Part shown: in pieces, positions 18,154-64,000 of the stretch | How the letters are laid out: every line of letters begins with the position of its first letter | How positions within the stretch are numbered: position 1 is the first letter of the stretch | Source of the DNA: Biomphalaria pfeifferi | Lineage: Eukaryota | Direction: 5' to 3' | DNA length: 64,000 bases | Assembly: GCA_030265305.1 (NCBI GenBank) | Contig: JASAOG010000245.1 | Span: forward strand, 233,822-297,821 | The notes under the pieces: generated by a model | Database searches by the model: none | The model's input: only the letters and a program-made list of their open reading frames with translations | Told to the model about the DNA's origin: nothing | Translations under genes and position numbers: made by a program

Positions 18154-19026
18154 TCACTCAGAGGCAGAGTCTTTGGGGGTAAGCTTCAAAGTCAGTTTGA
18201 GGGCCTTACGGTGGGGATTGGAGTCAGAGCCGCTGCTCTCAGCCCCTGGGGAGTGGAGCAGCGAGGTTGGAATACTAGAGAGCTGAGGTTCGAGAAGAAG
18301 ATCCTCAGGGTCAGAAATGTCCTGGATACCTGCGCTGCCTGCCCTTGAATGCTTACTGCTGCTAGTGCTGCCCCTTTTATGTCTACCTTCTTTCTCGGAG
18401 CCCGAAGAGCTCTTGTGAGACGTGCCGCCTGGGAGCAGGGGTGGCGTGGAGTGAGAAGCAGAGTGCGGGGAATAGATTGGACTCATCATGGAGGGGGAGT
18501 GGTAGGCGGACGGGTTATGCTGAGGTGTGACTGACATGGGGTGAGGTGGCGTCGAAGCATAGTTGGATTGCCGTTTGATTTTCAGTTTCAATAAGCCTTT
18601 GGCTGGGTCAATCATTTTACTCACAGCTAAACCATCTGTCGACGCTGCAGTCTGCCCAGCCAGCAGCCTTTTATGAAAATCCCCATCAGAGTCATCTGAG
18701 ATGTCTGAAAGTGGATTGAGTTTAGGAATTTTCGCAGCCGTTTTAGATTTGGGGTCGTCAAAAAGATCCGAAATATCTTCATCTTTTTCTGTATAATTGA
18801 CAGGTTTCCTTCGTCGCAAGCCCACACGACTCCTCCCTGCCTGTTCATCCTCAGCTTCTTTTCTCTTCAGTTCTTCCTCCACCTCTCTCTGCCTTCTTTG
18901 TTTTTCTTCCTCTTCCTCCTGTTTTGCTCTTTCCTTCATTTCCTGTCTCTTCTTGGCTTCTAACATTTTGCTGTATTGAATTTCCTCTTCCAACTGTGCT
19001 CGTCTAAGTTCAACTTCTTGCTGCCA
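18154..19026 (-). CDS. Terminal coding exon: Glu/Lys/Arg-rich coiled coil followed by a Ser/Pro-rich tail (WQQEVELRRAQLEEEIQYSKMLEAKKRQEMKER...RRRKPVNYTEKDEDISD...KALKLTLKLTPKDSASE*). It is either the last exon of the TAF6-like gene or a separate unidentified gene.
   Basis: Long minus-strand ORF with acceptor ttgattccag at 19027-19036 and stop at 18154-18156. The phase is compatible with the upstream exon 20707-20988. Confidence 0.55.
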   Translation of the reverse strand, partial: WQQEVELRRAQLEEEIQYSKMLEAKKRQEMKERAKQEEEEEKQRRQREVEEELKRKEAEDEQAGRSRVGLRRRKPVNYTEKDEDISDLFDDPKSKTAAKIPKLNPLSDISDDSDGDFHKRLLAGQTAASTDGLAVSKMIDPAKGLLKLKIKRQSNYASTPPHPMSVTPQHNPSAYHSPSMMSPIYSPHSASHSTPPLLPGGTSHKSSSGSEKEGRHKRGSTSSSKHSRAGSAGIQDISDPEDLLLEPQLSSIPTSLLHSPGAESSGSDSNPHRKALKLTLKLTPKDSASE

Positions 19027-19699: not shown

Positions 19700-20330
19700 C
19701 CTAAGAGATGCCTGCAAGTGGGATATATGGACAAAAGACATCAATGAAAGAAATGTAGAAAGAGACGCCTGCAAGTGGGATATATGGACAAAAGACATCA
19801 ATGAAAGAAAGGTAGAAAGAGACGCCTGCAAGTGGGATATATGGACAAAAGACATCAATGAAAGGAAGGTAGAAAGAGACGCCTGCAAGTGGGATATATG
19901 GACAAAAGACATCAATGAAAGGAAGGTAGAAAGAGACACCTGCAAGTGGGATATATGGACAAAAGACATCAATGAAAGAAAGGTAGAAAGAGACGCCTGC
20001 AAGTGGGATATATGGACAAAAGACATCAATGAAAGGAAGGTAGAAAGAGACGCCTGCAAGTGGGATATATGGACAAAAGACATCAATGAAAGGAAGGTAG
20101 AAAGAGATGCCTGCACGTGGGATATATGGACAAAAGACATCAATGAAAGAAAGGTAGAAAGAGACGCCTGCAAGTGGGATATATGGACAAAAGACATCAA
20201 TGAAAGGAAGGTAGAAAGAGACGCCTGCAAGTGGGATATATGGACAAAAGACATCAATGAAAGGAAGGTAGAAAGAGACGCCTGCAAGTGGGATATATGG
20301 ACAAAAGACATCAATGAAAGGAAGGTAGAA
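19700..20330. repeat. Minisatellite: about 60-bp unit (gacgcctgcaagtgggatatatggacaaaagacatcaatgaaaggaaggtagaaagaga) x about 10.5
   Basis: Read directly. Begins about 85 bp from the 5' head of the SINE at 19341-19614. Lies in an intron of the minus-strand gene. ORF-track hits 19685-20443 and 19701-20336 are repeat artefacts. Confidence 0.9.
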
Positions 20331-31741: not shown

Positions 31742-32191
31742 TTAGACCTTTAACCTAGAAAAATTATAAACCAATCTATCTCCCCAGCACTCAAAACCCA
31801 TGACAATAAGCTCAGCAATCAATTGCTCTACCAAATAGACCACACAAAAAAAATGTTTATAAGCCGTCTCAGTACTTAGATAATCCCAATCTGCATAGCC
31901 CCATATTGTACTGGTATAACCGAGAATGAGTAGCTTTTCTGTTTTTGGAATATCAAGTAAGGTGGAGTTTAGTTCTTCGTAGAACTTTGCTATGACATCA
32001 TCTGGGTTGGTCATGGTGGGTGCGTAAGAGCTAACAATGGAACTATGATTCTTTCCATTTTGTAAAGGCAGCTTTAGGGTCATGAGCCTATCACTAATTC
32101 CTTTGGGAGGCCCGACTAGTTTGGATACTATTGATGTTCTTATGGCAAAGCTGACTCCAGATTCACGTCGTACTTCAGTGCTGCAACGCAA
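31742..32191 (-). mobile_element. Inverted 5' segment of a LINE: APE-type endonuclease N-terminal half (..[26 protein letters not shown]....IVSSYAPT..)
   Basis: Minus-strand ORF with the characteristic LINE EN motifs. Lies immediately 5' of, and in opposite orientation to, the EN-C/RT body at 32250-34905. Confidence 0.6.
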
Positions 32192-32249
32192 GAGTTGGCT
32201 CTGACTATCACATCTGGAAAGGAGTCTTAGGCAAATTTGGTATAGGTCA

Positions 32250-35200
32250 ATGCAACAGCAACGGATTATTACTACTCCAGACCTGTGCTGAACACAAGCT
32301 GCTCATATCGAACACAATATTCAGTCTTCCAATGAGAAAGCAAACTTCCTGGATGCATCCCCGCCCAAGACACTGGCACCTCATAGATTACCTCATCACC
32401 AGACAATCTGACCGTCAGGACATTCGTGTCACCAAATCTTGCTGTGGTGCAGAATGTGGAACAGACCACTGCCTCATCATCACAAAACTAAACATTCGTA
32501 TCCAACCAAAGAGACATCCGCAAAAATCAAAACCCCCTAAAAAGGCTAAACACGGCCAGCTTAGCAGATGACAAAACTGAAAAGTCACTTGCAGATGCGA
32601 TAGAGAACTGCCTCAAGTCCACCCTTCTAACTGAATCAAATGTAGATAAAAGCTGGGAATGCTTCAAAGAAGCTATCTATAGCACAGCATTAAACATACT
32701 CGGTCCTATGGAGAGAAAGCATAAGGACTGGTTTGATGAAAACAGTACTGAGATCAGAAAACTATTAGATGAAAAGCACAAGCTCCACAAATTGTATCTG
32801 AACAACCCATACTCCCAGTCCACTAAAGATGCATTCACTAACATCCGCAAAAATGTGCAAAAACAGCTACGCCAAATGCAAGATACCTGGCTTAGCAAGA
32901 AAGTGGAAACAATACAGGAATTTGCTGACAAGCACGATATGAAGAACCATGCCATAAACGAAATCTATGGACCCACAAAGTCAGGCTCATCCCCTGATGG
33001 GACAATCCTATTGACAGATAAGGAAGAAATCCTAAAACACTGGGCAGAGCACTTCGAAAAGGTTCTCAATACACCTTCCATCATAAATGAAGCGGCCATA
33101 GACAGGCTACAGCAAGTACCAATAAATGAAAAAATGGATGACCCCCCTACGCTAAAGGAAACCGATCTTGCTATTCAACAGCTCGCAAGCGGAAAAGCCC
33201 CAGGAGCTGACTCCATTCCCGCAGTGGTCTACAAAAAAAGGTGGATTAGCCCTGATTGAAAGACTTCATAAGCTCTTCTTAATTATGTGGGAAAAAGAGT
33301 CAATACCACAAGACTTTAAAGATGCCACAATTGTTCATTTATACAAGCGAAAAGGTAACCGCCAGATCTGCGACAACCACAGAGGAATATCTCTTCTCTC
33401 GATTGCTGGGAAAATCCTTGCACGCATCCTACTAAATCAGCTCATGCAACACATAGAATATGGTCTACTAACAGAAAGCCAGTGCGGCTTCAGAAAAGAG
33501 CGTGGATCCATTGACATGATCTTTGCAGCAAGGCAGCTCCAGGAAAAATGCCAAGAACAAAATGCTGTTCCTGTTCTCAATATACGTTGACTTAACAAAG
33601 GCATTGGACACTGTTAGCAGAGAAGGACTCTGGAAGATCATGTCAAAGTATGGCTGTCCACAAAAATTCATAACCATGGTGAGACTATTTCATGATGGCA
33701 TGAAGGCTCGTGTCCAAGAAAGTGGAGAATCATCAGAGCCCTTCGAAGTATCAAACGGGGTAAAACAAGGCTGTGTCCTAGCACCTACACTGTTCAGTAT
33801 CATATTCTCCGCTATGCTGACAGATGCATTCACAAATAGAGAAAACAATGGGATAAATATATCATACAGATTTGATGGTGGCCTATTCAACCCGAGGCGG
33901 ATTAAAGCAAAATCAAAAACAAATACAGCAGTAATCAGAGACTTGCTATTTGCTGACGACTGTGCCCTAAATGCTTGCTCTGCTAACGATCTGCAGAGCA
34001 TTGTCAGTGACTTCTCAAGAGCATGCACAGACTTTGGCCTTACCATCAATACGAACAAGACGGAAGTCTTATATCTACCTGCTCCTGGGAAAACCTACTC
34101 GGATCCAAGCAGGAAATAAACGCAGTGGACAAATTCACATATCTTGGCAGCACACTCTCCAGAAATGGAAAAATCGATAGTGAAATCGACCTGCGTATCG
34201 CCAAGGCCAGTGCATCCTATGGCAGACTGTCTACAAATGTCTGGAACAGACGTGGTATCACCACAAACACAAAGCTAGGGATCTATAGAGCCGTCATCCT
34301 CCCCACATTGCTCTATGCCCCAGAAACATGGACAGTGTACAGTAAACATGCAAAGAAACTAAACCACTTCCACATGACATGTCTGAGAAAAATACTAAAT
34401 GTCAAATGGCAAGACAAAATACCAGATACAGAAGTCCTTCGAAGAGTGTGCCTGCAAAGCATCCACACAATCCTGATGCAGTCCCAGCTGCGATGGGCAG
34501 GTCACGTCTACAGAATGGAAGACCACCGCATCCCTAAACGACTCTTGCATGGCCAACTAAGCGAAGGAAATCGCTAGCAAGGTGGTCAAAGTAAGCGCTT
34601 CAGGGACACACTCAAAGCTTCTCTGAAGGCGTTCAGCATAGACCCAGGCACCTGGGAGACAGAGGCACATGACAGAGCATCATGGTGTCGCACTGTGAAA
34701 ACTGGCGCACAGGTTGCTGAGGAAAAAAGAACAACGCTGGCAGAAGAAAAACGCCAGAAAAGAAAAGCAAGACAAACGACACTAGCTCCAGCTGGAATAA
34801 CCTGCCAAGTGTGCGGCCGAACATTCCGGGCTCATATAGGTCTCACCAGCCACATGAGGAGGCATAAGACCCCAGTGCAAAGCCCTCAGCCCCCTGGATG
34901 ACAAAGTGGTCATCATCGAACCTCGATGGACGAACTATACACTGGTATAACACCTAACATTTTTACATAATAATAATTTAATTTATATAGCCCTGTTCAC
35001 AAACATAAAATAGGCTCTAACATGGACATGAGAGCTAAAATGGAAAACTATTCTAAGTATGTTTTGCATAGATCTTAAAGTTCTACTTAAATGTAATGAA
35101 ACATGTGGTTTATCTGAGCTCAATGGGGAGAAAGTTCCAAACCTTTGCTCCATGAAATGATCAAGGCCGCAAATCATAACTTTTAAGAGAAAAATACTGT

Positions 35201-46055: not shown

Positions 46056-46999
46056 TGTGTATGTATTGATTTGTTAGTTACTAGCTGTGGTATGACAGTA
46101 GTTTGTCAAACATTCTTTTAATCTCCCCCTCATTCCCTCCCCCTTCTTTCTCTGTTGTAAGAATCGGCTCCTCCGCTGAAATAAATCAGTTAGGCTTCAC
46201 CTTTGCTGTTGTATTGAAGGATCTTTCAAGTCATGGGAGAGTGCGATTTTCAAGTTCCAGTGACAGAATAGCACTCCACGTGTGTGTGTGTTAACATGCT
46301 ACACAATTGCATACACAATTTATTTATAAATACATAGGCTATGTAATTATCAGCAAAGGGAGGAGAATTTAGTTAATGTCCATATGGGGAAAAGCAAAGG
46401 GTAATTATTAGTATTCAATTAAGACCCTCGAGTATTTCAGTTAAACATGTGACAGCGTTGCCCCTCCCTTTTTTTTTTGGTCTGCGCTATCTGTCTCTCC
46501 AAAATAGGGCTCCACAGCCACATGAGGAAGTGTGCTCTGAGATGAACCATAGTCGTTCTACGACTGAAGGAAGCCAATGATGAATGAATTATTATTTTTT
46601 TTGGTCACACATTTTCTCCTACTGAAGCTTTGCATAGATTAAATAGAAAGATCTAGATCTCTAAGATGACGGGTTCGGTTACATTCCTGTCGTGTTCAGC
46701 AGGTCGTTAACAGACCGTGTGTACGTTAGTACATAATTAACAGTATGAGTCAGTACATAATGAACAGTCCTTGTCGTGGCTATCTCAGCCACTATTAGAG
46801 CACCGGTTGTCACCATACTGGTAGCATCGGGCCGAGGCCAGGTGGCAAGAAGTGTGACTGCACGGTGTCTCGGCCGCTTTAATCGCAGGGCGAATCTAGC
46901 ACTCCGTAGCCCAGACCACTCCACACGCTTAATACCCTCAATTTGCGCCTGCCTGCACTGTCTTGTAGAAACCTTCAGGGGTCACTTCTGACTTAGGTT

Positions 47000-47490
47000 C
47001 TAAATACATGTATTTTTGCAGGCCACAGAGAGAGATTGTAAATACTTGTATTTTTGCAGGCCACAGAGAGAGATTGTAAATACATGTATTTTTGCAGGCC
47101 ACAGAGAGAGATTCTTAATACGTGTATTTTTGCAGGTCACAGAGAGAGATTCTAAATACGTGTATTTTTGCAGGCCACAGAGAGAGATTGTAAATACTTG
47201 TATTTTTGCAGGCCACAGAGAGAGATTGTAAATACTTGTATTTTTGCAGGTCACAGAGAGATACTAAATACGTGTATTTTTGTAGGTCACAGAGAGAGAT
47301 TCTAAGTACGTGTAGTTGTTGTGTAGGCCACAGAGAGAGATTCTAAATACGTGTATTTGTTGTGTAGGTCACAGAGAGAGATTCTAAATACGTGTAGTTG
47401 TGTAGGTCACAGAGAGAGATTCTAAATACGTGTAGTTGTGTAGGCCACAGAGAGAGATTCTAAGTACGTGTATTTGTGTAGGTCACAGAG
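47000..47490. repeat. Minisatellite: 38-42 bp unit (ggccacagagagagattgtaaatacttgtatttttgca, then a variant gtcacagagagagattctaaatacgtgtagttgtgtag) x about 12
   Basis: Read directly. ORF-track hits 47000-47254 and 47016-47231 are artefacts. Confidence 0.9.
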
Positions 47491-49868
47491 AGAATTGGGT
47501 GTAATGAAATAGTGACTGTGACGCTCATGTTACGTTTTAACTTTCTCACTTGAGTGTTGATACTTGTGTATATTTTTTTATTACACACACGTACACCCTT
47601 GCCACCTCCTTCACACAGAACACATCCGTCTTTTGTCCTCACGCTGCCCATCGCCATTTTTTTTTCTTAGCGAACACCTTTTTATGAACACTTTATAGTA
47701 ATTCGTTCAGGCATTCAGCAAGTGCTTCAAAAGTGGGAAATAGGTTTTAATTAGTCTATGGTAGAAAAAGGGATTAGGCGTTATACCACACACACACACA
47801 CGCGCTGGTTTTTTTTTTTTATCTCTTTCAATTATACCGAGCCAGGGCCGGATTTAAGTTAATGGATGCCCCTTCTTTCTTTTGAAAGCTTTAATGCGAA
47901 CGCACTTCATGAATGTTTGGGTAGTGCAATCTTAGAGCATTTCATTTTGTTTGTTCTCAATGTTATTGGATGTTCTCTCACATATGAAGATAATTTAACC
48001 CTAGCAAACAACGGCGAGCAGGGGTTCGAATCCCAGAACCATCCAGACGATAGTCCACAGCGCATCCCTTACGACCAGGCTGCCACCCATTTAATCCGAC
48101 TTTCCTTCTTTTATATAGAGCATTTTTTGTGTGTATATGTTGAGATCCTTAGAGAGAGAGAGAGAGGTCCTTGGAGGCTGCATAATCTTATGTGCCGCAC
48201 TTTACCCACCTGCTATAGTGTTGATTATGTACGCCCCTGATCTAGGCTATAGTAAGTACACGGAAAATAATACAAGACCACAGTTACATGGCCATTTACC
48301 GTATGTCTCTGCGAGTCTGTACGCTATCGTAGGAGATAGGGCGCGTGTGACATGTGGTTATCCTTGTACATCGACCTTATTTTATGCATAGGTCATCGCT
48401 CCTGGTGGCTAGGGTCTGATCTACTGGTGTGTGCGTTAGTAAGATTTCATAGCTGACAAGCAAAAATATATCAGAAAAAAAAGCTACTTATAAAACAAAA
48501 GAAAGCTGATATAGGGGGGAAAGATCTCATATCTCTCAATACTGCACGATTGATCTCGCCCTTTCTATTTTCAAACAAGGTTGATTGATTACCACTAATG
48601 AATTAACTGATTGGTTTATTTTTTGACCGATTCACGTGTTGTCTTCTACAAAGAATAGTTGTGCAAATAGTCTCAACTTGAGCCGAGTATGGCGAGTGAC
48701 AGAATTAACGTGTACAAAGTGTGTGCTGTAATTATTAATTCTAGTATGGGCGTTTTCTAAGAGGTGTTGGTAAATATATTCATATCTGCTTCTGTTATAT
48801 AAAGAACATGTGCGTTGGGATTTTTAATTAATTAAAACTAACTAGTGTGATGCGTTATTAGCTGATCAATACCGGATAGGGTGTTTTTCAATTAGGCAAG
48901 TTAAAAAAACTTAGTAGATAGGTTTACACAAGGAATGTGTTTGTACCAAAACGAGGCTTGATCCTTGAGTGCAATACTCGATAGTCTCGTAGTAGTGTAG
49001 ATCTATTTCTTGGGCACAACTTTTTGACTGCAAACGAATGAATGGTTATCCCGTTGTCGTCTGCTGATCAAAGCTCGCGCTCTAGCTGAGGAGCGTATGA
49101 CGGAATAGGGGGAAACAACACACCGCGCTCACAACTGTCGCCCTCTCAAGATAATGGTAATAAATGCAGAATGTTTCTGAAAATGTCGCCTGTGGTTGTG
49201 TAACATACTTTCTCCGTGCAGTTGGTCGCAGGCTAGTTTGTACTCGTTTTTTTTTTCTAACCAAATAGTATTTCCTAAGTATAACGTTATAAGAATTTAC
49301 CTTGACCTTTTACTTTACGGTGTGGGGGGTAAATTAGTTGTCTCGTAGTTTTAACTGGGTTTCTTGAAATTTAAATGTAGATCTTATATTTGTAGAAAAT
49401 ATAAGGACTATTTCATTTTGTTATATTACTTTTTTTTAGACTTCATTATCAGTACTTTCTACTGTACATGACTTTATCAAGCATAATAGCACAGTACGTT
49501 AAGTAATCGTCTGCTACCCTGCTTCCAAGCATTACATCTTGTGGCTTGCGTTTTTTTTCCCCGGTTTTTTTTTTTTTTTGGTCTCGTGCCAAAACATGTG
49601 ACTTGTTTATCAGCTTTTGGCGTGAAAATGTTCAAGCAAGTGATGCAACATTTTTTTTTTTAAATCCGAGTTTTTCTATTTACAATTATCTACTTTTACC
49701 CCCCTCTCTTTTTTCCCCCGTATATTTTGCTGAGTGTAATGGAATGACTGACCCCTACGTAGTCATATGAGTATTGAGATTCGTTGATTTGGATGGCTGC
49801 TTGCTGGCGAGGTTCGAACCCGTCCCCGGCCCCACCGTCCTAGCCCGCCGTTCTGATGGAGGTTTGGG

Positions 49869-55734: not shown

Positions 55735-56097
55735 GGTGCTGTATCTCTAAATATGTGGCTGTATCTCTCAGTATGTGGCTGTATCCCTAAATATGTGGCT
55801 GTATCCCTAAATATGTGGCTGTATCTCTAAGTATGTGGCTGCATCTCTAAGTATGTGGCTGCATCTCTAAGTATGTGGCTGCATCTCTAAGTATGTGGCT
55901 GTATCCTTAAGTATGTGGCTGTATCCCTAAGTATGTGGCTGTATCTCTAAGTATGTGGCTGTATCCCTAAATATGTGGCTGTATCCCTAAGTATGTGGCT
56001 GTATCTCTAAATATGTGGCTGTATCTCTAAGTATGTGGCTATATCCCTAAATATGTGGCTTTATCTCTAAGTATGTAGCTGTATCCCTAAATTATGT
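55735..56097. repeat. Minisatellite: 20-bp unit gtatc(t/c)ctaa(g/a)tatgtggct x about 18, fused to the 5' end of a truncated family-1 SINE
   Basis: Read directly. The array runs straight into ..tgggttccaatcctggtgtagactgggatttttaattttcgg.. (the SINE body, 56098-56320). Confidence 0.9.
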
Positions 56098-56320
56098 GGC
56101 TGGGTTCCAATCCTGGTGTAGACTGGGATTTTTAATTTTCGGATATTTAGGATATTCGGATATTTCCACCTATCTCTAATGGGCACCTGGCATTTGTTGG
56201 TGAAAAATTGGTTGGTCCTTGTGTTGACCACATGACACCCTCTTAATCGCGAGCCACAGAAACAGATGTCCTACTATATATTATCTGCCCCAAAGATTGC
56301 AAGGGAAACTTACTTTAGTC
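56098..56320 (+). mobile_element. SINE family 1, 5'-truncated (tRNA head replaced by the 20-bp array)
   Basis: Conserved body ..ctctaatgggcacctggcatttgttggtgaaaaa..gaccacatgacaccctcttaatcgcgagccacagaaacagatg..ctgccccaaagattgcaagggaaacttactt. Confidence 0.7.
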
Positions 56321-56505: not shown

Positions 56506-56819
56506 ATATATGTATATTCAAATTCGAGCTTCAAAGGTAGCCGAGTAGCCCGTGAGTCTCAGCGGCATATACTAAAAACAATAATACAAATAAAATATGC
56601 ATATAGTGATTACTTGTACTACGTTGTACACATGTAGAGGCGGCCTTAGCAGTAAGCAAGGCCCGGGCGAGTTTCATATCCAAACATCCCTATAGAATAA
56701 ACCATACAGAGGCGGCTTAGTAAGGCAACCTCGGTGGGCCCCGCGATAGCAGAATTTATTTTCATCTTGTTTGTTGATTTAAGGTCACTTAATTAATATT
56801 AGATGGCTGCCTGGTCGTG

Positions 56820-57505
56820 CCACAGTATTTGGTTTCTTTGAAATGCCACTGTATTTGGTTTCTTTGAAATGCCACAGTATTTGGTTTCTTTGAAATGCCA
56901 CTGTATTTGGTTTCTTTAAAATGCCACTATATTTGGTTTCTTTGAAATGCCACAGTATTTGATTTCTTTGAAATGCCACTGTATTTGGTTTCTTTGAAAT
57001 GCCACTGTATTTGGTTTCTTTGAAATGCCACTGTATTTGGTTTCTTTGAAATGCCACTGTATTTGGTTTCTTTGAAATGCCACTGTATTTGGTTTCTTTG
57101 AAATGCCACAGTATTTGGTTTTTTTTGAAATGCCACTGTATTTGGTTTCTTTGAAAAGCCACAGTATTTGGTTTCTTTGAAATGCCACTGTATTTGGTTT
57201 CTTTGAAATGCCACTGTATTTGGTTTCTTTGAAATGCCACTGTATTTGGTTTCTTTGAAATGCCACTGTATTTGGTTTCTTTGAAATGCCACTGTATTTG
57301 GTTTCTTTGAAATGCCACTGTATTTGGTTTTTTTGAAATGCCACAGTATTTGGTTTCTTTGAAATGCCACTGTATTTGGTTTCTTTGAAATGCCACAGTA
57401 TTTGGTTTCTTTGAAATGCCACTGTATTTGGTTTCTTTAAAATGCCACAGTATTTGGTATCTTTGAAATGCCACTGTATTTGGTTTCTTTGAAATGCCAC
57501 TGTTT
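56820..57505. repeat. Minisatellite: 26-bp unit ccac(t/a)gtatttggtttctttgaaatg x about 26, starting immediately after a 20-bp SINE family-2 head (gatggctgcctggtcgtgc). Lies about 150 bp upstream of the pyruvate carboxylase start codon.
   Basis: Read directly. ORF-track hits 56785-57525, 56916-57500 and 56927-57370 are repeat artefacts. Confidence 0.9.
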
Positions 57506-57658: not shown

Positions 57659-57845
57659 ATGTTGAGGCTGAAGGCTCGTGTGGGAGTTCTCCACCATGTG
57701 GCCTCATCATCAATGGCACGGGCCACCTCAGCAACATCGTTGCATGGTGGAGCATTGTCAAAGACACTACCAGACATTCGACTGCAGTCCTCGCAAGCAA
57801 AATCTCAGATTAAGCCAATAAAAAAACTCATGGTGGCCAACAGAG
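57659..57845 (+). CDS. PC: Pyruvate carboxylase exon with start codon and mitochondrial presequence (MLRLKARVGVLHHVASSSMARATSATSLHGG...SQIKPIKKLMVANR)
   Basis: Arg/Ser-rich presequence followed by PIKKLMVANRG (human PIKKVMVANRG). Donor gtaagt at 57846. Confidence 0.85.
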
Positions 57846-58165: not shown

Positions 58166-58654
58166 TTATCTAATATATAACCATCAAAACCCTCTGCCCC
58201 TTTTTTTAATATCTTTTCCATTTGTTTCTTTTCAAGTCATTCCATTTATACTCAATACATTGTTTTCCTTGAAGTGAAGATGCATTATGTAGAATGCATG
58301 AGTCTAGTGTATGGAAGATACTTAAAAATTGTGTAATAACATGTAGCTCATCTCTCATGCTTATAGTGTGCTCTATGTATCTTGGACCAATCTTTTTTCT
58401 ATGGGCCAGTGGGGTAAGGGATAACTAAGAGAAGGTTTCCATGTTACTCTTACGTAGTCACAAAACTTTGCTGCAGTTGGTGTGCTCAAGTGTATCTTGG
58501 TCCAATCTTTTTTTATGGACCATTGGGGTAAGCAATAACTAAGAGAAGGTTTCCATGTTGCTCTTAAGTAGTCAGAAAACGTCGCTGCCATTGGGCCGTA
58601 GTCTTGATTTCAAGCCATTTTGATAGGTAGTTATGCAGGTTTATGCTTCTCAGC

Positions 58655-58912: not shown

Positions 58913-59097
58913 GGGAAATAGCCATCCGTGTTTTTCGTGCATGCACAGAGATGGGCATACGTACAGTAGCAATCTACTCAGAGCAAGACATTAATCAAAT
59001 GCACAGGCAGAAATCAGATGAGTCGTACCTTATTGGGAAAGGTCTGTCACCTGTGGCTGCCTACCTGAACATTGACGAGATCATCAACATTGCTTTG
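58913..59097 (+). CDS. PC: Pyruvate carboxylase exon 2, biotin carboxylase N-domain ([62 protein letters not shown])
   Basis: Near-identical to human [42 protein letters not shown]. Acceptor ttttttacag and donor gtaagg. Confidence 0.9.
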
Positions 59098-59733: not shown

Positions 59734-59899
59734 GAAAATCATGTTGATGCCATCCATCCTGGGTATGGTTTCTTGTCAGAGAGAGCAGACTTTGCTAAGG
59801 CTTGTGTCGATGCAGGCATCACGTTCATTGGTCCAACACCTAAGGTGGTCCACAGGATGGGGGATAAGGTGGAGGCAAGACAAGCGGCGACTGATGCAG
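59734..59899 (+). CDS. PC: Pyruvate carboxylase exon 3 ([55 protein letters not shown])
   Basis: Matches human [49 protein letters not shown]. Acceptor tcttag and donor gtaata. Confidence 0.9.
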
Positions 59900-60385
59900 G
59901 TAATATGACTGTAGACTTTACTCAAAATATTCCTGTAACAATCTTGAAATGGCCTTTCTTTTTGGAGGCCATAGGGATAATGGAAGAAGCACTGTGGTCA
60001 AAGTCACAGATTCAAATATCTGCCCTTATTAAAAGCCAATGATTTTATCTATAAATCAGAGTTTTATAATAGAAACCAATGGAACTATTGGATCCTTTGG
60101 TTTTCAGTTTCAGGACTAAGAATACAGATCTTTTTTTTTCTCCTGGAAAGAACAAAATACTTGACTTCATTTAAAAGTTACAGAATACAGGTGTACATTC
60201 TGACATTGAATGTTTAGTAGCGAAGTCAATGATGAAGCACAACTTTCTAAATGCATGAGCAACAAATATGGTAGAAACTGCAAACATTTTTACATTTTTG
60301 TCAACAGGAGTTGTTATTGAGGTACAAATGGTTTATTGAGTTGAAGAAATTATAATAATTTGCTCTTAGTTTGGAATTCATTCAA

Positions 60386-60640
60386 GGGACATTTGTATTT
60401 CCTTCAATGCAACTTTTAGAGAGTTTAAGAAAGGAACTAAGGGACATTTGTATTTCCTTCAATGCAACTTTTAGAGAGTTTTAGAAAGGAACTAAGGGAC
60501 ATTTGTATTTCCTTCAATGCAACTTTTAGAGAGTTTTAGAAAGGAACTAAGGGACATTTGTATTTCCTTCAATGCAACTTTTAGAGAGTTTTAGAAAGGA
60601 ACTAAGGGACATTTGCATTTCCTTCAATGCAACTTGCCAT
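60386..60640. repeat. Tandem repeat: about 56-bp unit (gggacatttgtatttccttcaatgcaacttttagagagttttagaaaggaactaag) x about 4.5, in PC intron 3
   Basis: Read directly. Confidence 0.85.
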
Positions 60641-61181
60641 TGTTAGTTAACATAACACACTAGTGTAGTTCCACTTCCTCATTTGTCACAAGTTCCATTT
60701 TGGCCTAGTAATGCTTGTTGACTCATTCAGAAGATACAAGCAAAAGCATAATAGTTATACTTGAGTAATTCATTGCTCGTGAAGAATTTGTAACAAACTG
60801 TTTAGTTCAAGGAATCTAAGACTGAGACTCTGCAGGACTGTTATTTATTGATTTTCTAAATCCTTTTCTTAACTTGTCTGTAAGCTTTTGTTGGTTGATT
60901 TGTAATTTTTTCTTCAATCAGTTGCAATACATCTTCACCTTGTTTTTGCTCTATGGATTTTAACTTGCTTCGAAATATGTACAGCCAAAAATTTTTGTAA
61001 GAAAACCTATCATCAGAGAAGACATCCTAGAAAATTCAAAACCTATTATCAGAGAAGACATCCTAGAAAATTCCACTGTGATCTAATATTTTTTAAATTT
61101 AATATTTTTGTGATATTATTTTCCAGTGGCGCTTCATTGCTTGTAGTTATAAAGACATTTTTTCCTATTTATTTGTCACAG

Positions 61182-61327
61182 GTGTGAGGGTAGTTCCAGG
61201 CACTCCAGGGCCCATCACCACTGCAGATGAAGCTTATGAGTTCTCCAAGACACATGGGCTGCCTGTTATTTTTAAAGCAGCTTATGGTGGAGGCGGTCGT
61301 GGAATGAGAGTCGTCAGGACTCTAGAT
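61182..61327 (+). CDS. PC: Pyruvate carboxylase exon 4, ATP-grasp ([49 protein letters not shown])
   Basis: Matches human [43 protein letters not shown]. Acceptor tgtcacag and donor gtgggt. Confidence 0.88.
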
Positions 61328-61909: not shown

Positions 61910-62027
61910 GAAGTGCAAGAAAATTTCAACAGAGCCTCTTCAGAAGCCTTGGCTGCATTCGGAAACGGAGCTCTCTTCATAGAAAAGTTTATTGAAAGAC
62001 CTCGTCATATTGAGGTCCAGATTCTAG
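61910..62027 (+). CDS. PC: Pyruvate carboxylase exon 5 ([39 protein letters not shown])
   Basis: Matches human [39 protein letters not shown]. Acceptor catccccag and donor gtaggt. Confidence 0.9.
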
Positions 62028-62275
62028 GTAGGTTTCATTTGTCAATGGGAGGGAACTTTCAAGGGGAATGTAATACTAATGTGTTTGAATTGTCATGACC
62101 TGTCTCCCTGTGTCTCAATTACTATTTGCTGTGCTGTTTGGTTTGCAGGGAGACGAGTGGTGGCTTCATTTCTTTTTTTTTACTTCCACTTGGTTTTTTG
62201 TTATTTACATGACTTTCCTTTTGATAAATGTTGTTTAGACCACACAAAAATAACCATAAAAAAAAAATAATAGAA

Positions 62276-62735
62276 AAGTTCCCCTTTCAGATCTTGCGAC
62301 CAATGGGGGCAGATGATGTAATGGTCATCTGTTTTTTTGGTCCACTGTTAAGGAGGCTGTCATGTGGCCATCACAACGACAACCTCCTTTATTTTTTCCC
62401 CAACTAGTGTCAGCTACCCATTAGAGCTAGGTGGACTCAGAGGCATCCAAAAGTCCCGAAATTCATAATAATAGTTTTTTGAATTTGTGTCTTAAAAGAG
62501 ATCTCAAAGACTTTGCGATCTATAAGGCAGATGTTGTAAAGTTCATTTGTTTTTATGGTTGACGGTTAATGAGGCTGTCATGTGGCCAGCACAATCACTT
62601 ACCACCTTTACTTTCCTCAACTTATTTGAGTTGGGTGGACTCAGGGGCACTCTAAAAATGTCAATATCCAGTCTTGACTGAGAGTCGAACTTGAGATGCA
62701 TTGGTTCAGAAACCAAGCTCTTTAGTCATCAGGCC
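62276..62735 (-). mobile_element. Two adjacent reverse-orientation family-1 SINE copies (62276-62460 and 62497-62735) in PC intron 5
   Basis: Both contain ..gtcatctgttttt..ggctgtcatgtggcca.cacaa...ccattagagct/ttgagttgggtggactcag.. The second retains a tRNA-like head (..gagtcgaacttgagatgcattggttcagaaaccaagctctttag.). Confidence 0.7.
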
Positions 62736-63007
62736 TCTACATTGCAAAAGAAATGCCTTGAATGACTTTTACTTGTAATAGCTAGCTGTTGGAAATCAGG
62801 CCTCTACATTACAAAAGAAATGCCTCGAATAACGTTTACTTGTAATAACTAGCTGTTGGAAATAAGACAGTTTCTTCAGTTAGATTCCCAATGCTGTAAA
62901 TGTAAATAATATGTCCTTCAGTTAGATGTCCTTTTCTTGCCCAATGCTGTAAATAAGACATTTTTCCAGTTAGATGTCAGGCACCTATTTTGCCTAATCC
63001 AGTAAAT

Positions 63008-63228
63008 AAAACATTTTCTTTAGCTATTTCTGTCCTAATGTTGTCTCAGGGACTTAAGGCTACATGTAAATGTTTCCCTTACCTACTCTTTCCCTTTAAG
63101 CTGCATAGCATATTTCCTTACACTTCCCTCAATCCTGATAGCTTGACTTATACCACCAGGTGACAAGGCTGGCAATGTGGCCCACTTGTATGAGAGAGAC
63201 TGTTCAGTGCTATTTTCTTTAGCTATTT
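63008..63228 (+). repeat. Upstream copy of an approximately 210-bp tandem duplication spanning the intron / exon-6 junction of PC (pseudo-acceptor plus the first approximately 50 nt of the exon, then divergence)
   Basis: 63010-63228 is approximately 90% identical to 63204-63428. Both copies contain ccaccag|gtgacaaggctggcaatgtggcccacttgtatgagagagactgttc, and only the downstream copy continues in frame. Confidence 0.8.
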
Positions 63229-63377
63229 CCATCCTAATGTTGTCTCAGGGACTTATGGCTACACATAAATGTTTTCCCATACCTACTATTCTTTCTAAGC
63301 TGCATTCTACTAAGCTGCATAGCATATTTCCTTCTTTACACTTCCCTCGATCCTGATAGCTTGACTTAAACCACCAG

Positions 63378-63648
63378 GTGACAAGGCTGGCAATGTGGCC
63401 CACTTGTATGAGAGAGACTGTTCTGTGCAGAGGCGTCACCAGAAAGTTGTGGAGATAGCTCCAGCCCCAAAGCTGGATGAGAAACTGCGTAACAAGATGA
63501 ATGATGATGCTGTCAAACTGGCCAAGTTTGTCGGCTACGAGAACGCTGGAACAACAGAGTTTCTCTTGGACAAGAATGGGGAACACTTCTTCATCGAGGT
63601 GAATGCCAGACTTCAAGTGGAACACACTGTGACAGAGCAAGTTACTGG
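63378..63648 (+). CDS. PC: Pyruvate carboxylase exon 6 ([91 protein letters not shown]); the gene continues beyond the window
   Basis: Matches human [90 protein letters not shown]. Acceptor ccaccag and donor gtaagt. Confidence 0.9.
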
Positions 63649-64000
63649 GTAAGTCTACCAATCATCGAGTCTTTTATTTTGCTGATCTTCTTGGGCCAAC
63701 ATTTCAAAAAATGGTTTGATAAAAGAAACTTGCTTGAAATGCAGACAAATAAACGTTCTCTTGAAGCCTAAAAAAGCTTGTTCTAGTGATTCAGTTCTAA
63801 AAGTGAAGCTCGAAATAAAATATGCAGCCTAGATTTAGAAAAAGTTTATAAAAATTTTTTTTTAATTTTTGAGAAAGCTAACTGGGCCAGTAAAGTTATC
63901 TGAAGATACAAGAGAACTCAGTCATTTAAAAACTTCTTTATTCTTCAGTCAAAATATTTGTTCTTTAAAGTAAAAAAAAAACAACAGTTCAGAATATTTC

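Follow-up and report, generated by a model that had tools for sequence, protein, structure and literature searches.

The closest precedent for the locus described here is the potato RdRp gene. A tandem duplication across the boundary of its intron 1 and exon 2 left the gene with two acceptors, both of which are used (Ma, Lan & Niu 2016, PMC4974935). The exon stub of the upstream copy contains a cryptic GTAAG donor, which gave rise to a new exon and a new intron, as documented with 106 RNA-seq reads and a phylogeny, and the ten differences between the copies were taken as an argument against an assembly error (PMC4974935). Rogers-type intron gain is related. In ATP2A2, duplication of an AGGT segment experimentally gave an intron that was spliced at 6-16% (Hellsten et al. 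2011, PMC3265369), and AGGT duplication of this type has been reviewed as widespread (PMC3443670). Together, these three sources indicate that such duplications are tolerated and spliced.

Other described systems share parts of this arrangement. A ratchet point is defined by an acceptor that directly abuts a donor (Joseph et al. 2021, PMC8605326). In FGG, a pathogenic 403-bp duplication of exon 8 and intron 8 results in competing splice sites and premature stops (PMC9052919). When two human 3' splice sites of similar strength lie at least 20 nt apart, the upstream one is preferred overall, and this preference is weaker under exon definition or with long flanking introns (PMC9225289).

The duplication reported here lies in the gene for pyruvate carboxylase (PC). 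The N-terminus of PC is encoded on the plus strand of the window (the whole 64-kb stretch of DNA that was analysed) between 57.7 and 63.6 kb, as determined by tblastn with database fragments, inspection of the junctions and splicing in silico. Exons 1 to 6, all on the plus strand, occupy 57713-57845, 58913-59097, 59734-59899, 61182-61327, 61910-62027 and 63378-63648. Exon 5 (118 nt) has the acceptor catccccag|GAAGTG and the donor TAG|GTAGGT, and exon 6 (271 nt) ends at the donor TGG|GTAAGT at 63649. When spliced in silico, the six exons give an unbroken 339-aa N-terminus over the biotin-carboxylase region, which shares 75-80% identity with PC fragments of fish, arthropods and flatworms. Exons 1-6 account for about 340 residues of a full-length PC that is expected to be near 1180 aa. 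The boundary of exon 6, at 63377/63378, was set by homology to PC proteins, and the conserved protein ...QILGDKAGNV...CSVQRRHQK... is obtained only with the junction to 63378. Intron 5 (62028-63377, plus strand) is 1350 nt long and hosts the duplication together with two other tandem duplications. An earlier note on this DNA had named the gene as PC, ended exon 5 at 62027 and described a duplication across the intron 5-exon 6 boundary. The clean 339-aa N-terminus, the GTAGGT donor and the homology-fixed exon 6, respectively, confirm these three points.

A repeat search, a MAFFT alignment and a blastn self-comparison all found two adjoining direct copies on the plus strand, separated by a single base (t63211). 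Copy A (63013-63210) is 198 nt long and is made up of 147 nt derived from the intron and a 51-nt stub of the start of exon 6. Copy B (63212-63428) is 217 nt long, of which 166 nt form the end of intron 5 and 51 nt the start of the functional exon 6. The repeat unit is about 199-218 bp. The blastn self-hit spans 217 columns with 86.6% identity (E=3e-70). In a gapped global alignment, 10 of the 198 aligned positions are mismatched (5.1%, Jukes-Cantor 0.052), and four indels of 1, 3, 11 and 4 nt account for 19 gap columns. The insertions specific to copy B total 19 nt and include a local slippage duplication of taagctgcat. The duplicated parts of the exon (63160-63210 and 63378-63428) are identical at 50 of 51 positions. 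Their first 46 nt match exactly, and the sole difference, A63206 in copy A versus T63424 in copy B, is synonymous (Ser, TCA/TCT). Tandem Repeats Finder (TRF) missed this repeat because of the indels.

With a word size of 7, blastn found no further copies of the duplicated unit within the 64-kb window, which speaks against a dispersed repeat or transposable element as its origin. No Rfam match with E<=1 was found in 57.5-64 kb, and no tRNA-like sequence was found. The element is a tandem segmental duplication across a splice junction: its copies adjoin, it sits on the boundary of a real gene, and it is not dispersed within the window. The repeat search, the MAFFT alignment and the blastn comparison bear out the tandem duplication that the earlier note had placed at the exon-6 acceptor, and its limits of 63008-63430 were within 5 nt of the measured 63013-63428.

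Each copy carries its own acceptor. The real acceptor of exon 6 has its AG at 63376-63377. The AG of the other, hereafter the spare acceptor, is at 63158-63159 on the same plus strand, in the context ...ctgatagcttgacttataccaccAG|GTGACA. Both are preceded by a branch-point-like CTGAT, assigned by motif only, at 63135-63139 for the spare site and 63353-63357 for the real one, with the candidate branch-point A (63138 and 63356) at position -22 in each case. The upstream copy has therefore kept a branch-point-like CTGAT, an AG and an exon start, as the earlier note had stated. Its description of the two acceptors as identical applies to ccaccag and to 46 nt of the exon. Position -9 differs (T in the spare site, A in the real site), as does position -29 (A in the spare site, G in the real site). 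The pseudo-exon starts at 63160 and not at 63170 as had been given, a slip of 10 nt, while the start of exon 6 at 63378 was right.

The spare acceptor has 9 pyrimidines in 16 positions and the real one has 8 in 16. Approximate scores, which come from a simple position-weight scheme with approximate frequencies and are relative values, neither MaxEntScan scores nor species-specific, are 5.0 for the spare acceptor and 2.9 for the real one. Both are weak beside the 7.3-15.3 of exons 2-5, and the real acceptor of exon 6 scores lowest among the first five PC acceptors. Whether RNA structure might mask the spare site was also considered. The predicted fold of 63000-63440 gives no sign of masking at either acceptor, being no more stable than that of shuffled sequence (z=+1.37). 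In view of these signals, the spare acceptor probably competes with the real one at some level, and the preference for upstream sites in human genes makes some use of it plausible. The label "decoy 3' splice site" is fair in anatomical terms.

If exon 5 were joined to 63160 and the rest retained, 218 nt (63160-63377) would be added to the mRNA. Since 218 mod 3 = 2, the frame would shift. The first in-frame stop would be a TGA at 63354-63356 on the plus strand, 65 codons past the spare acceptor and overlapping the CTGAT of the real acceptor. The predicted product is a 314-aa isoform that reads through as ...YERDCSVLFSLAIS...HFPRS before the TGA. Because this stop lies far upstream of the remaining PC gene, nonsense-mediated decay (NMD) would be expected. 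The frameshift and premature stop that the earlier note had foreseen are thus correct in silico, provided that the 218 nt are retained.

Transcripts from the spare site would carry GACTGTTCAGTGCTATTTTC. Exon 5 ends in ...GTCCAGATTCTAG and the segment from G63160 begins GTGACAAGG. The mark of spare-acceptor use with the 218 nt retained would be ...GAGAGAGACTGTTCAGTGCTATTTTCTTTAGC, and that of the normal product is ...GAGAGAGACTGTTCTGTGCAGAGGCGTCAC. Since the two junctions read alike for 46 nt, junction reads are ambiguous unless they reach at least 47-52 nt past the junction. The comparison of junction reads at 63170 and 63378 that had been proposed cannot tell the acceptors apart with an overhang of less than 47 nt, and its upstream coordinate should be 63160.

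Transcripts spliced to the spare acceptor would not necessarily be lost, because the 218-nt segment is bounded by GT...AG. An AG and a GT are juxtaposed at 63158-63161 (ccaccAG|GTGACA, spanning 63158-63165). The segment thus runs from the donor-like cag|GTGACA to the real acceptor, with its own branch-point-like motif and pyrimidine tract. Ligation of exon 5 to 63160 would regenerate the junction TAG|GTGACA, which pairs at -2 to +4 and is without the +5 G and the +6 T. The approximate score of the GTGACA donor is 7.75 in its genomic context and 5.3 when regenerated, which is weaker than all five real PC donors scored (exons 2-6, 6.25-8.8). Donors within the stub were also considered as a source of in-frame micro-isoforms and were rejected. 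Besides position 0, only the GTs at 63177 and 63188 score above 0 (1.6 and 1.9), and either would cause a frameshift. The GT at 63202 would insert a 14-aa repeat and the GT at 63207 would require a weak AG at 63429-30; both score below 0.

These features place the PC duplication near the potato gene. In both, the 3' end of an intron and the 5' end of the next exon are duplicated in tandem, and a branch site, a pyrimidine tract, an AG and proximal exonic enhancers would be present in both copies. The copies differ at about ten nucleotides in both genes, and both host introns contain a second, harmless tandem duplication. Unlike the RdRp stub, that of PC offers no good donor internally: apart from cag|GTGACA at position 0, the GTs above 0 reach only 1.6-1.9, and an internal donor would break the frame or insert the 14-aa repeat. 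The RdRp products are also backed by RNA-seq, whereas those of the spare PC site are predicted.

As in Rogers-type gain, duplication of AG|GT in PC produced a GT...AG unit (63160-63377) that could be removed without a coding change. However, the classical model duplicates purely exonic sequence and yields a new intron, whereas the PC event duplicated an existing acceptor junction, which gives a longer intron and a competing acceptor; the donor half, GTGACA, is also weak. The FGG duplication is likewise a few hundred bp long and covers a splice junction, with competing sites and premature-stop transcripts as its outcome, which are predicted for PC. FGG differs in that its duplication contains the donor and abolishes the protein, while that of PC contains the acceptor, is seen in one assembly and leaves the normal frame available.

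The differences between the copies bear on the age of the duplication. Inferred CpG sites account for five of the 10 substitutions (TG versus CA at 63031-32 and 63065-66, CA versus CG at 63131), and the observed/expected CpG ratio of the window is 0.46. This pattern is the signature of independent decay in a methylated genome and indicates that the copies have truly diverged with time. The earlier note had offered a recent structural variant as one reading, which is contradicted by the 5.1% substitutions, half of them of the CpG-decay type, and the four indels.

The distribution of the mismatches was used to look for constraint. There are 7 in the 84 positions of the far intron, 2 in the 63 near the acceptor and 1 in the 51 of the exon stub. 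The splice-signal and exon part together (3/114) does not differ significantly from the far intron (7/84; Fisher p=0.10), and 3/114 fits the half-rate expectation under which only copy B is constrained (p=0.30). This comparison of copies A and B found no excess conservation of the spare copy over the neutral expectation. The spare acceptor itself thus shows no sign of selection, which speaks against the regulated unproductive splicing that the earlier note had suggested.

The surroundings are rich in repeats. TRF found 12 arrays in the window, and introns 1-5 of PC contain six tandem duplications in about 6 kb. Three lie upstream of intron 5, at 58366-58594 (unit 114 nt, 2 copies), 60384-60635 (55 nt, 4.6 copies) and 61002-61073 (36 nt, 2 copies). 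The other three are in intron 5, on the plus strand. The one at 62308-62656 has two copies of a unit of about 218 nt, with an offset of 204-218 nt and 71-86% identity, and is older. The one at 62728-62863 has two copies of a 67-nt unit with 92-93% identity, and the third is the duplication studied here (63013-63428, unit about 208 nt, 2 copies). A degenerate plus-strand array at 62846-63017 consists of four TTGCCCAATGCTGTAAATAAGACATTTT-like units spaced 38-53 nt apart, the last of which overlaps the 5' edge of copy A. One boundary-spanning duplication was observed against about 1.2 expected by random placement, an expectation calculated from ten exon boundaries in 5.9 kb and units that sum to about 700 nt. 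One duplication across an exon boundary is therefore about what chance placement gives.

Independent sequences were searched for the locus and its products. A protein search with exons 5 and 6 returned no match above 81% identity among the matches listed, and one with the 314-aa spare-site isoform returned no match above 79% identity or 85% coverage among the matches listed. A match with 85% coverage takes in exons 1-5 and a further 17 residues, and no listed match enters the read-through tail. Both searches covered the best 120 matches among proteins no longer than about 1.75 times the query, so full-length PC or short fragments could escape them. No protein among 5.8 billion sequences had at least about 155 residues matching the isoform, which is a weak result since a normal PC fragment of the species was not seen either. 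A metagenome scan gave no match above 71% identity. There were no exact matches to 19 ORFs of the window, which included those containing exons, the spare-site read-through and an antisense ORF over exon 6. When a 752-aa ORF from the start of the window, unrelated to PC, was used as a protein query, it led to Logan contigs of runs ERR13935000-3 (L081-L084), which are 99.5% identical to the window over 2.75 kb. Public data therefore exist from the same or a very close species; the lengths of the contigs suggest that the runs are RNA-seq, and the matched locus may be a paralogous copy.

Several explanations could account for the duplicated acceptor. It could be an assembly artefact, in which two haplotypes or the product of a gap-closing error were placed in tandem and the genome is truly single-copy. 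The duplication is known from one assembly only, and its copies are homologous from end to end, as alleles would be. However, there are no Ns in the window, and the copies differ by 5.1% and four indels, which include an internal slippage duplication specific to one copy. The difference of just 0.2% from the Logan contigs also argues against an artefact and, given the possible paralogy, is suggestive only. In addition, the older duplication with a similar unit in the same intron, at 71-86% identity, cannot be allelic. We consider an artefact very improbable. Another possible explanation is that the spare acceptor has evolved into a poison 3' splice site, and that its use, under regulation, would feed NMD and tune PC levels. 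Alternative 3' splice sites coupled to NMD, or decoys, likewise pair a competing upstream acceptor with a premature stop upon its use. Established examples have measured, regulated use and usually strong sequence conservation, while the conservation of the spare PC site is at the neutral level and its use is putative. The acceptor signals are intact, and the identity of the first 46 exon nt means that proximal exonic enhancers would be duplicated too. The spare site is slightly richer in pyrimidines (9/16 versus 8/16) and has the higher approximate score (5.0 versus 2.9), the stop at 63354-63356 is far ahead of what remains of the ~1180-aa reading frame, and upstream sites are preferred in pairs of equal strength (PMC9225289). 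These points are set against a conservation of the spare copy that does not rise above the neutral expectation, and against a gene that is full of similar duplications without apparent consequence. The RNA structure is ordinary, Rfam gave no match, and the search for the 314-aa isoform was negative, though it is a weak test. Overall, a poison site seems unlikely.

Two-step, recursive-like removal would make the duplication harmless even if the spare acceptor were used often. Exon 5 would frequently join the spare acceptor, after which TAG|GTGACA would be spliced to the real acceptor, so that the 218-nt unit would behave as a Rogers-type intron and the mRNA would be normal. Like ratchet points, the PC site has AG|GT juxtaposed, and ligation would regenerate a 5' splice site. 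Known ratchet points combine strong GTAAGT-like donors with very long host introns and sequence conservation, whereas the PC site has GTGACA without the +5 G and +6 T, lies in an intron of only 1.35 kb and originated by duplication. The end product would also be the same as that of direct splicing. Two-step removal nevertheless draws on the GT...AG boundaries of 63160-63377, with an inherited branch point and pyrimidine tract, and on a length of 218 nt, which is short enough for intron definition. Its approximate donor score is 5.3, against 6.25 for the lowest-scoring of the real PC donors scored. An AGGT duplication alone can give a spliced intron (6-16% spliced, PMC3265369), and acceptor-donor juxtaposition is what defines ratchet points (PMC8605326). 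We regard frequent two-step removal as doubtful, though less so than a poison site, and it is compatible with the preferred explanation as a sub-route.

The preferred explanation, to which we assign a probability of roughly 65%, is that the tandem duplication is moderately old and effectively neutral, that its host gene is rich in repeats, and that it is tolerated since the downstream copy yields normal mRNA, whether by direct splicing or perhaps by the two-step route. Replication slippage or unequal exchange in the minisatellite-rich intron would most likely have produced it. This is the simplest origin because the degenerate array takes in the 5' edge of copy A and the intron is prone to repeats. 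The duplicated segment would have spanned the intron 5-exon 6 boundary by happenstance. Copy B remains the functional acceptor and exon start, while copy A has become part of intron 5 as a pseudo-acceptor with a 51-nt exon stub. Splicing of exon 5 to 63378 removes the whole of copy A and so leaves the coding sequence unaffected.

Under this neutral explanation, use of the spare site could have two outcomes. The 218 nt could be kept, which would lead to the frameshift, the stop at 63354-63356 and NMD. Alternatively, 63160-63377 could be removed secondarily, from TAG|GTGACA to the real acceptor, which would restore the normal mRNA. We judge the element to be a neutral or mildly costly structural by-product and not an evolved regulatory switch. 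It seems improbable that the duplicated acceptor has a function, whether it controls PC mRNA output as a poison 3' splice site under regulation or provides the obligatory first step of two-step splicing. The human preference for upstream sites counts against the neutral explanation, as it makes substantial use of the spare site conceivable; for an essential enzyme, this would argue for some cost or function.

The PC duplication is a new example of an already known kind of event. It can mislead gene predictors and, with 46 identical nt past each junction, confuse short junction reads. If it is real and fixed, it would be a natural example of a boundary-crossing tandem duplication that is tolerated in an essential metabolic gene, with an AG|GT junction that offers a possible repair route for mis-splicing. 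If obligatory two-step splicing were true, the locus would be a caught intermediate, in which a boundary duplication has turned the acceptor of a short intron into an AG|GT site resembling a ratchet point. Such cases inform models of how introns grow and are gained, and of how alternative 3' splice sites arise.

Among the first five acceptors of the pyruvate carboxylase (PC) gene, the authentic one of exon 6 (63378) is much the poorest in its pyrimidine tract. Only 8 of the 16 positions from -20 to -5 are pyrimidines, as compared with the sites at 58913, 59734, 61182 and 61910. A TAG also lies at -20/-19, 2 nt past the putative branch A. The AG/GT junction is found at the start of exon 4 as well (cacag/GTGTGA).

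The two copies of the tandem duplication that spans this intron-exon boundary, copy A (upstream, carrying the spare acceptor) and copy B (functional), were compared at the dinucleotide level. Paired changes were seen at two sites, where copy A has TG (63031-63032 and 63065-63066) and copy B has CA (63230-63231 and 63264-63265). These pairs are as expected for an ancestral CpG that decayed on opposite strands, one per copy. Five of the six inferred CpG slots have decayed, while the non-CpG divergence of the copies is only about 2.6%. On these small numbers, CpG decay exceeds what a simple rate ratio would give.

Protein homologue searches were limited to targets below roughly 1.75 query lengths, which means up to 237 aa for the 135-aa query (exons 5 and 6) and up to 550 aa for the 314-aa query (the spare-site isoform). 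Since the targets were restricted in this way, negatives for full-length proteins obtained with short-fragment queries are uninformative.

At the start of the window, an intact 752-aa ORF is present on the minus strand (29-2287). The Pfam search found no domain in it, and the protein search gave 409 matches at E≤1e-5, placing it in a large family of proteins of about 750 aa. The family has several copies in Artemia franciscana and members in Patella caerulea and an aphid. Logan runs ERR13935000-3 contain contigs (L081-L084) that are 99.5% identical to the ORF region at the nucleotide level. Their homology to the window ends at position 2747, and the contigs begin at their 5' end with an additional 155 nt that has no match anywhere within the 64-kb window. 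The ORF is probably an expressed transposon-like gene, and the contigs possibly represent another copy of it.

A decayed LINE-type element with fragmented ORFs, mostly on the plus strand, lies at 31742-34577 and retains a reverse-transcriptase domain (PF00078, 33523-34119, E=3e-17). A 279-aa ORF rich in E, K and S (18154-18993, minus strand) gave no match in Pfam or by exact sequence look-up; it could belong to another, unrelated gene that lies upstream of PC, as one of its large exons.

A minisatellite of 26 copies of a 26-nt unit (56818-57503, 95% matches) ends about 200 nt 5' of the PC start codon (ATG 57713), presumably within the promoter or the 5' UTR. A tandem array of 20 nt x 18 (55738-56102) and high-copy minisatellites of 57 nt x 11 (19703-20330), 38 nt x 13 (46998-47493) and 55 nt x 4.6 (60384-60635) are also present. 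Tandem repeats are unusually abundant across the whole window, and this is the setting in which the PC acceptor duplication is found.
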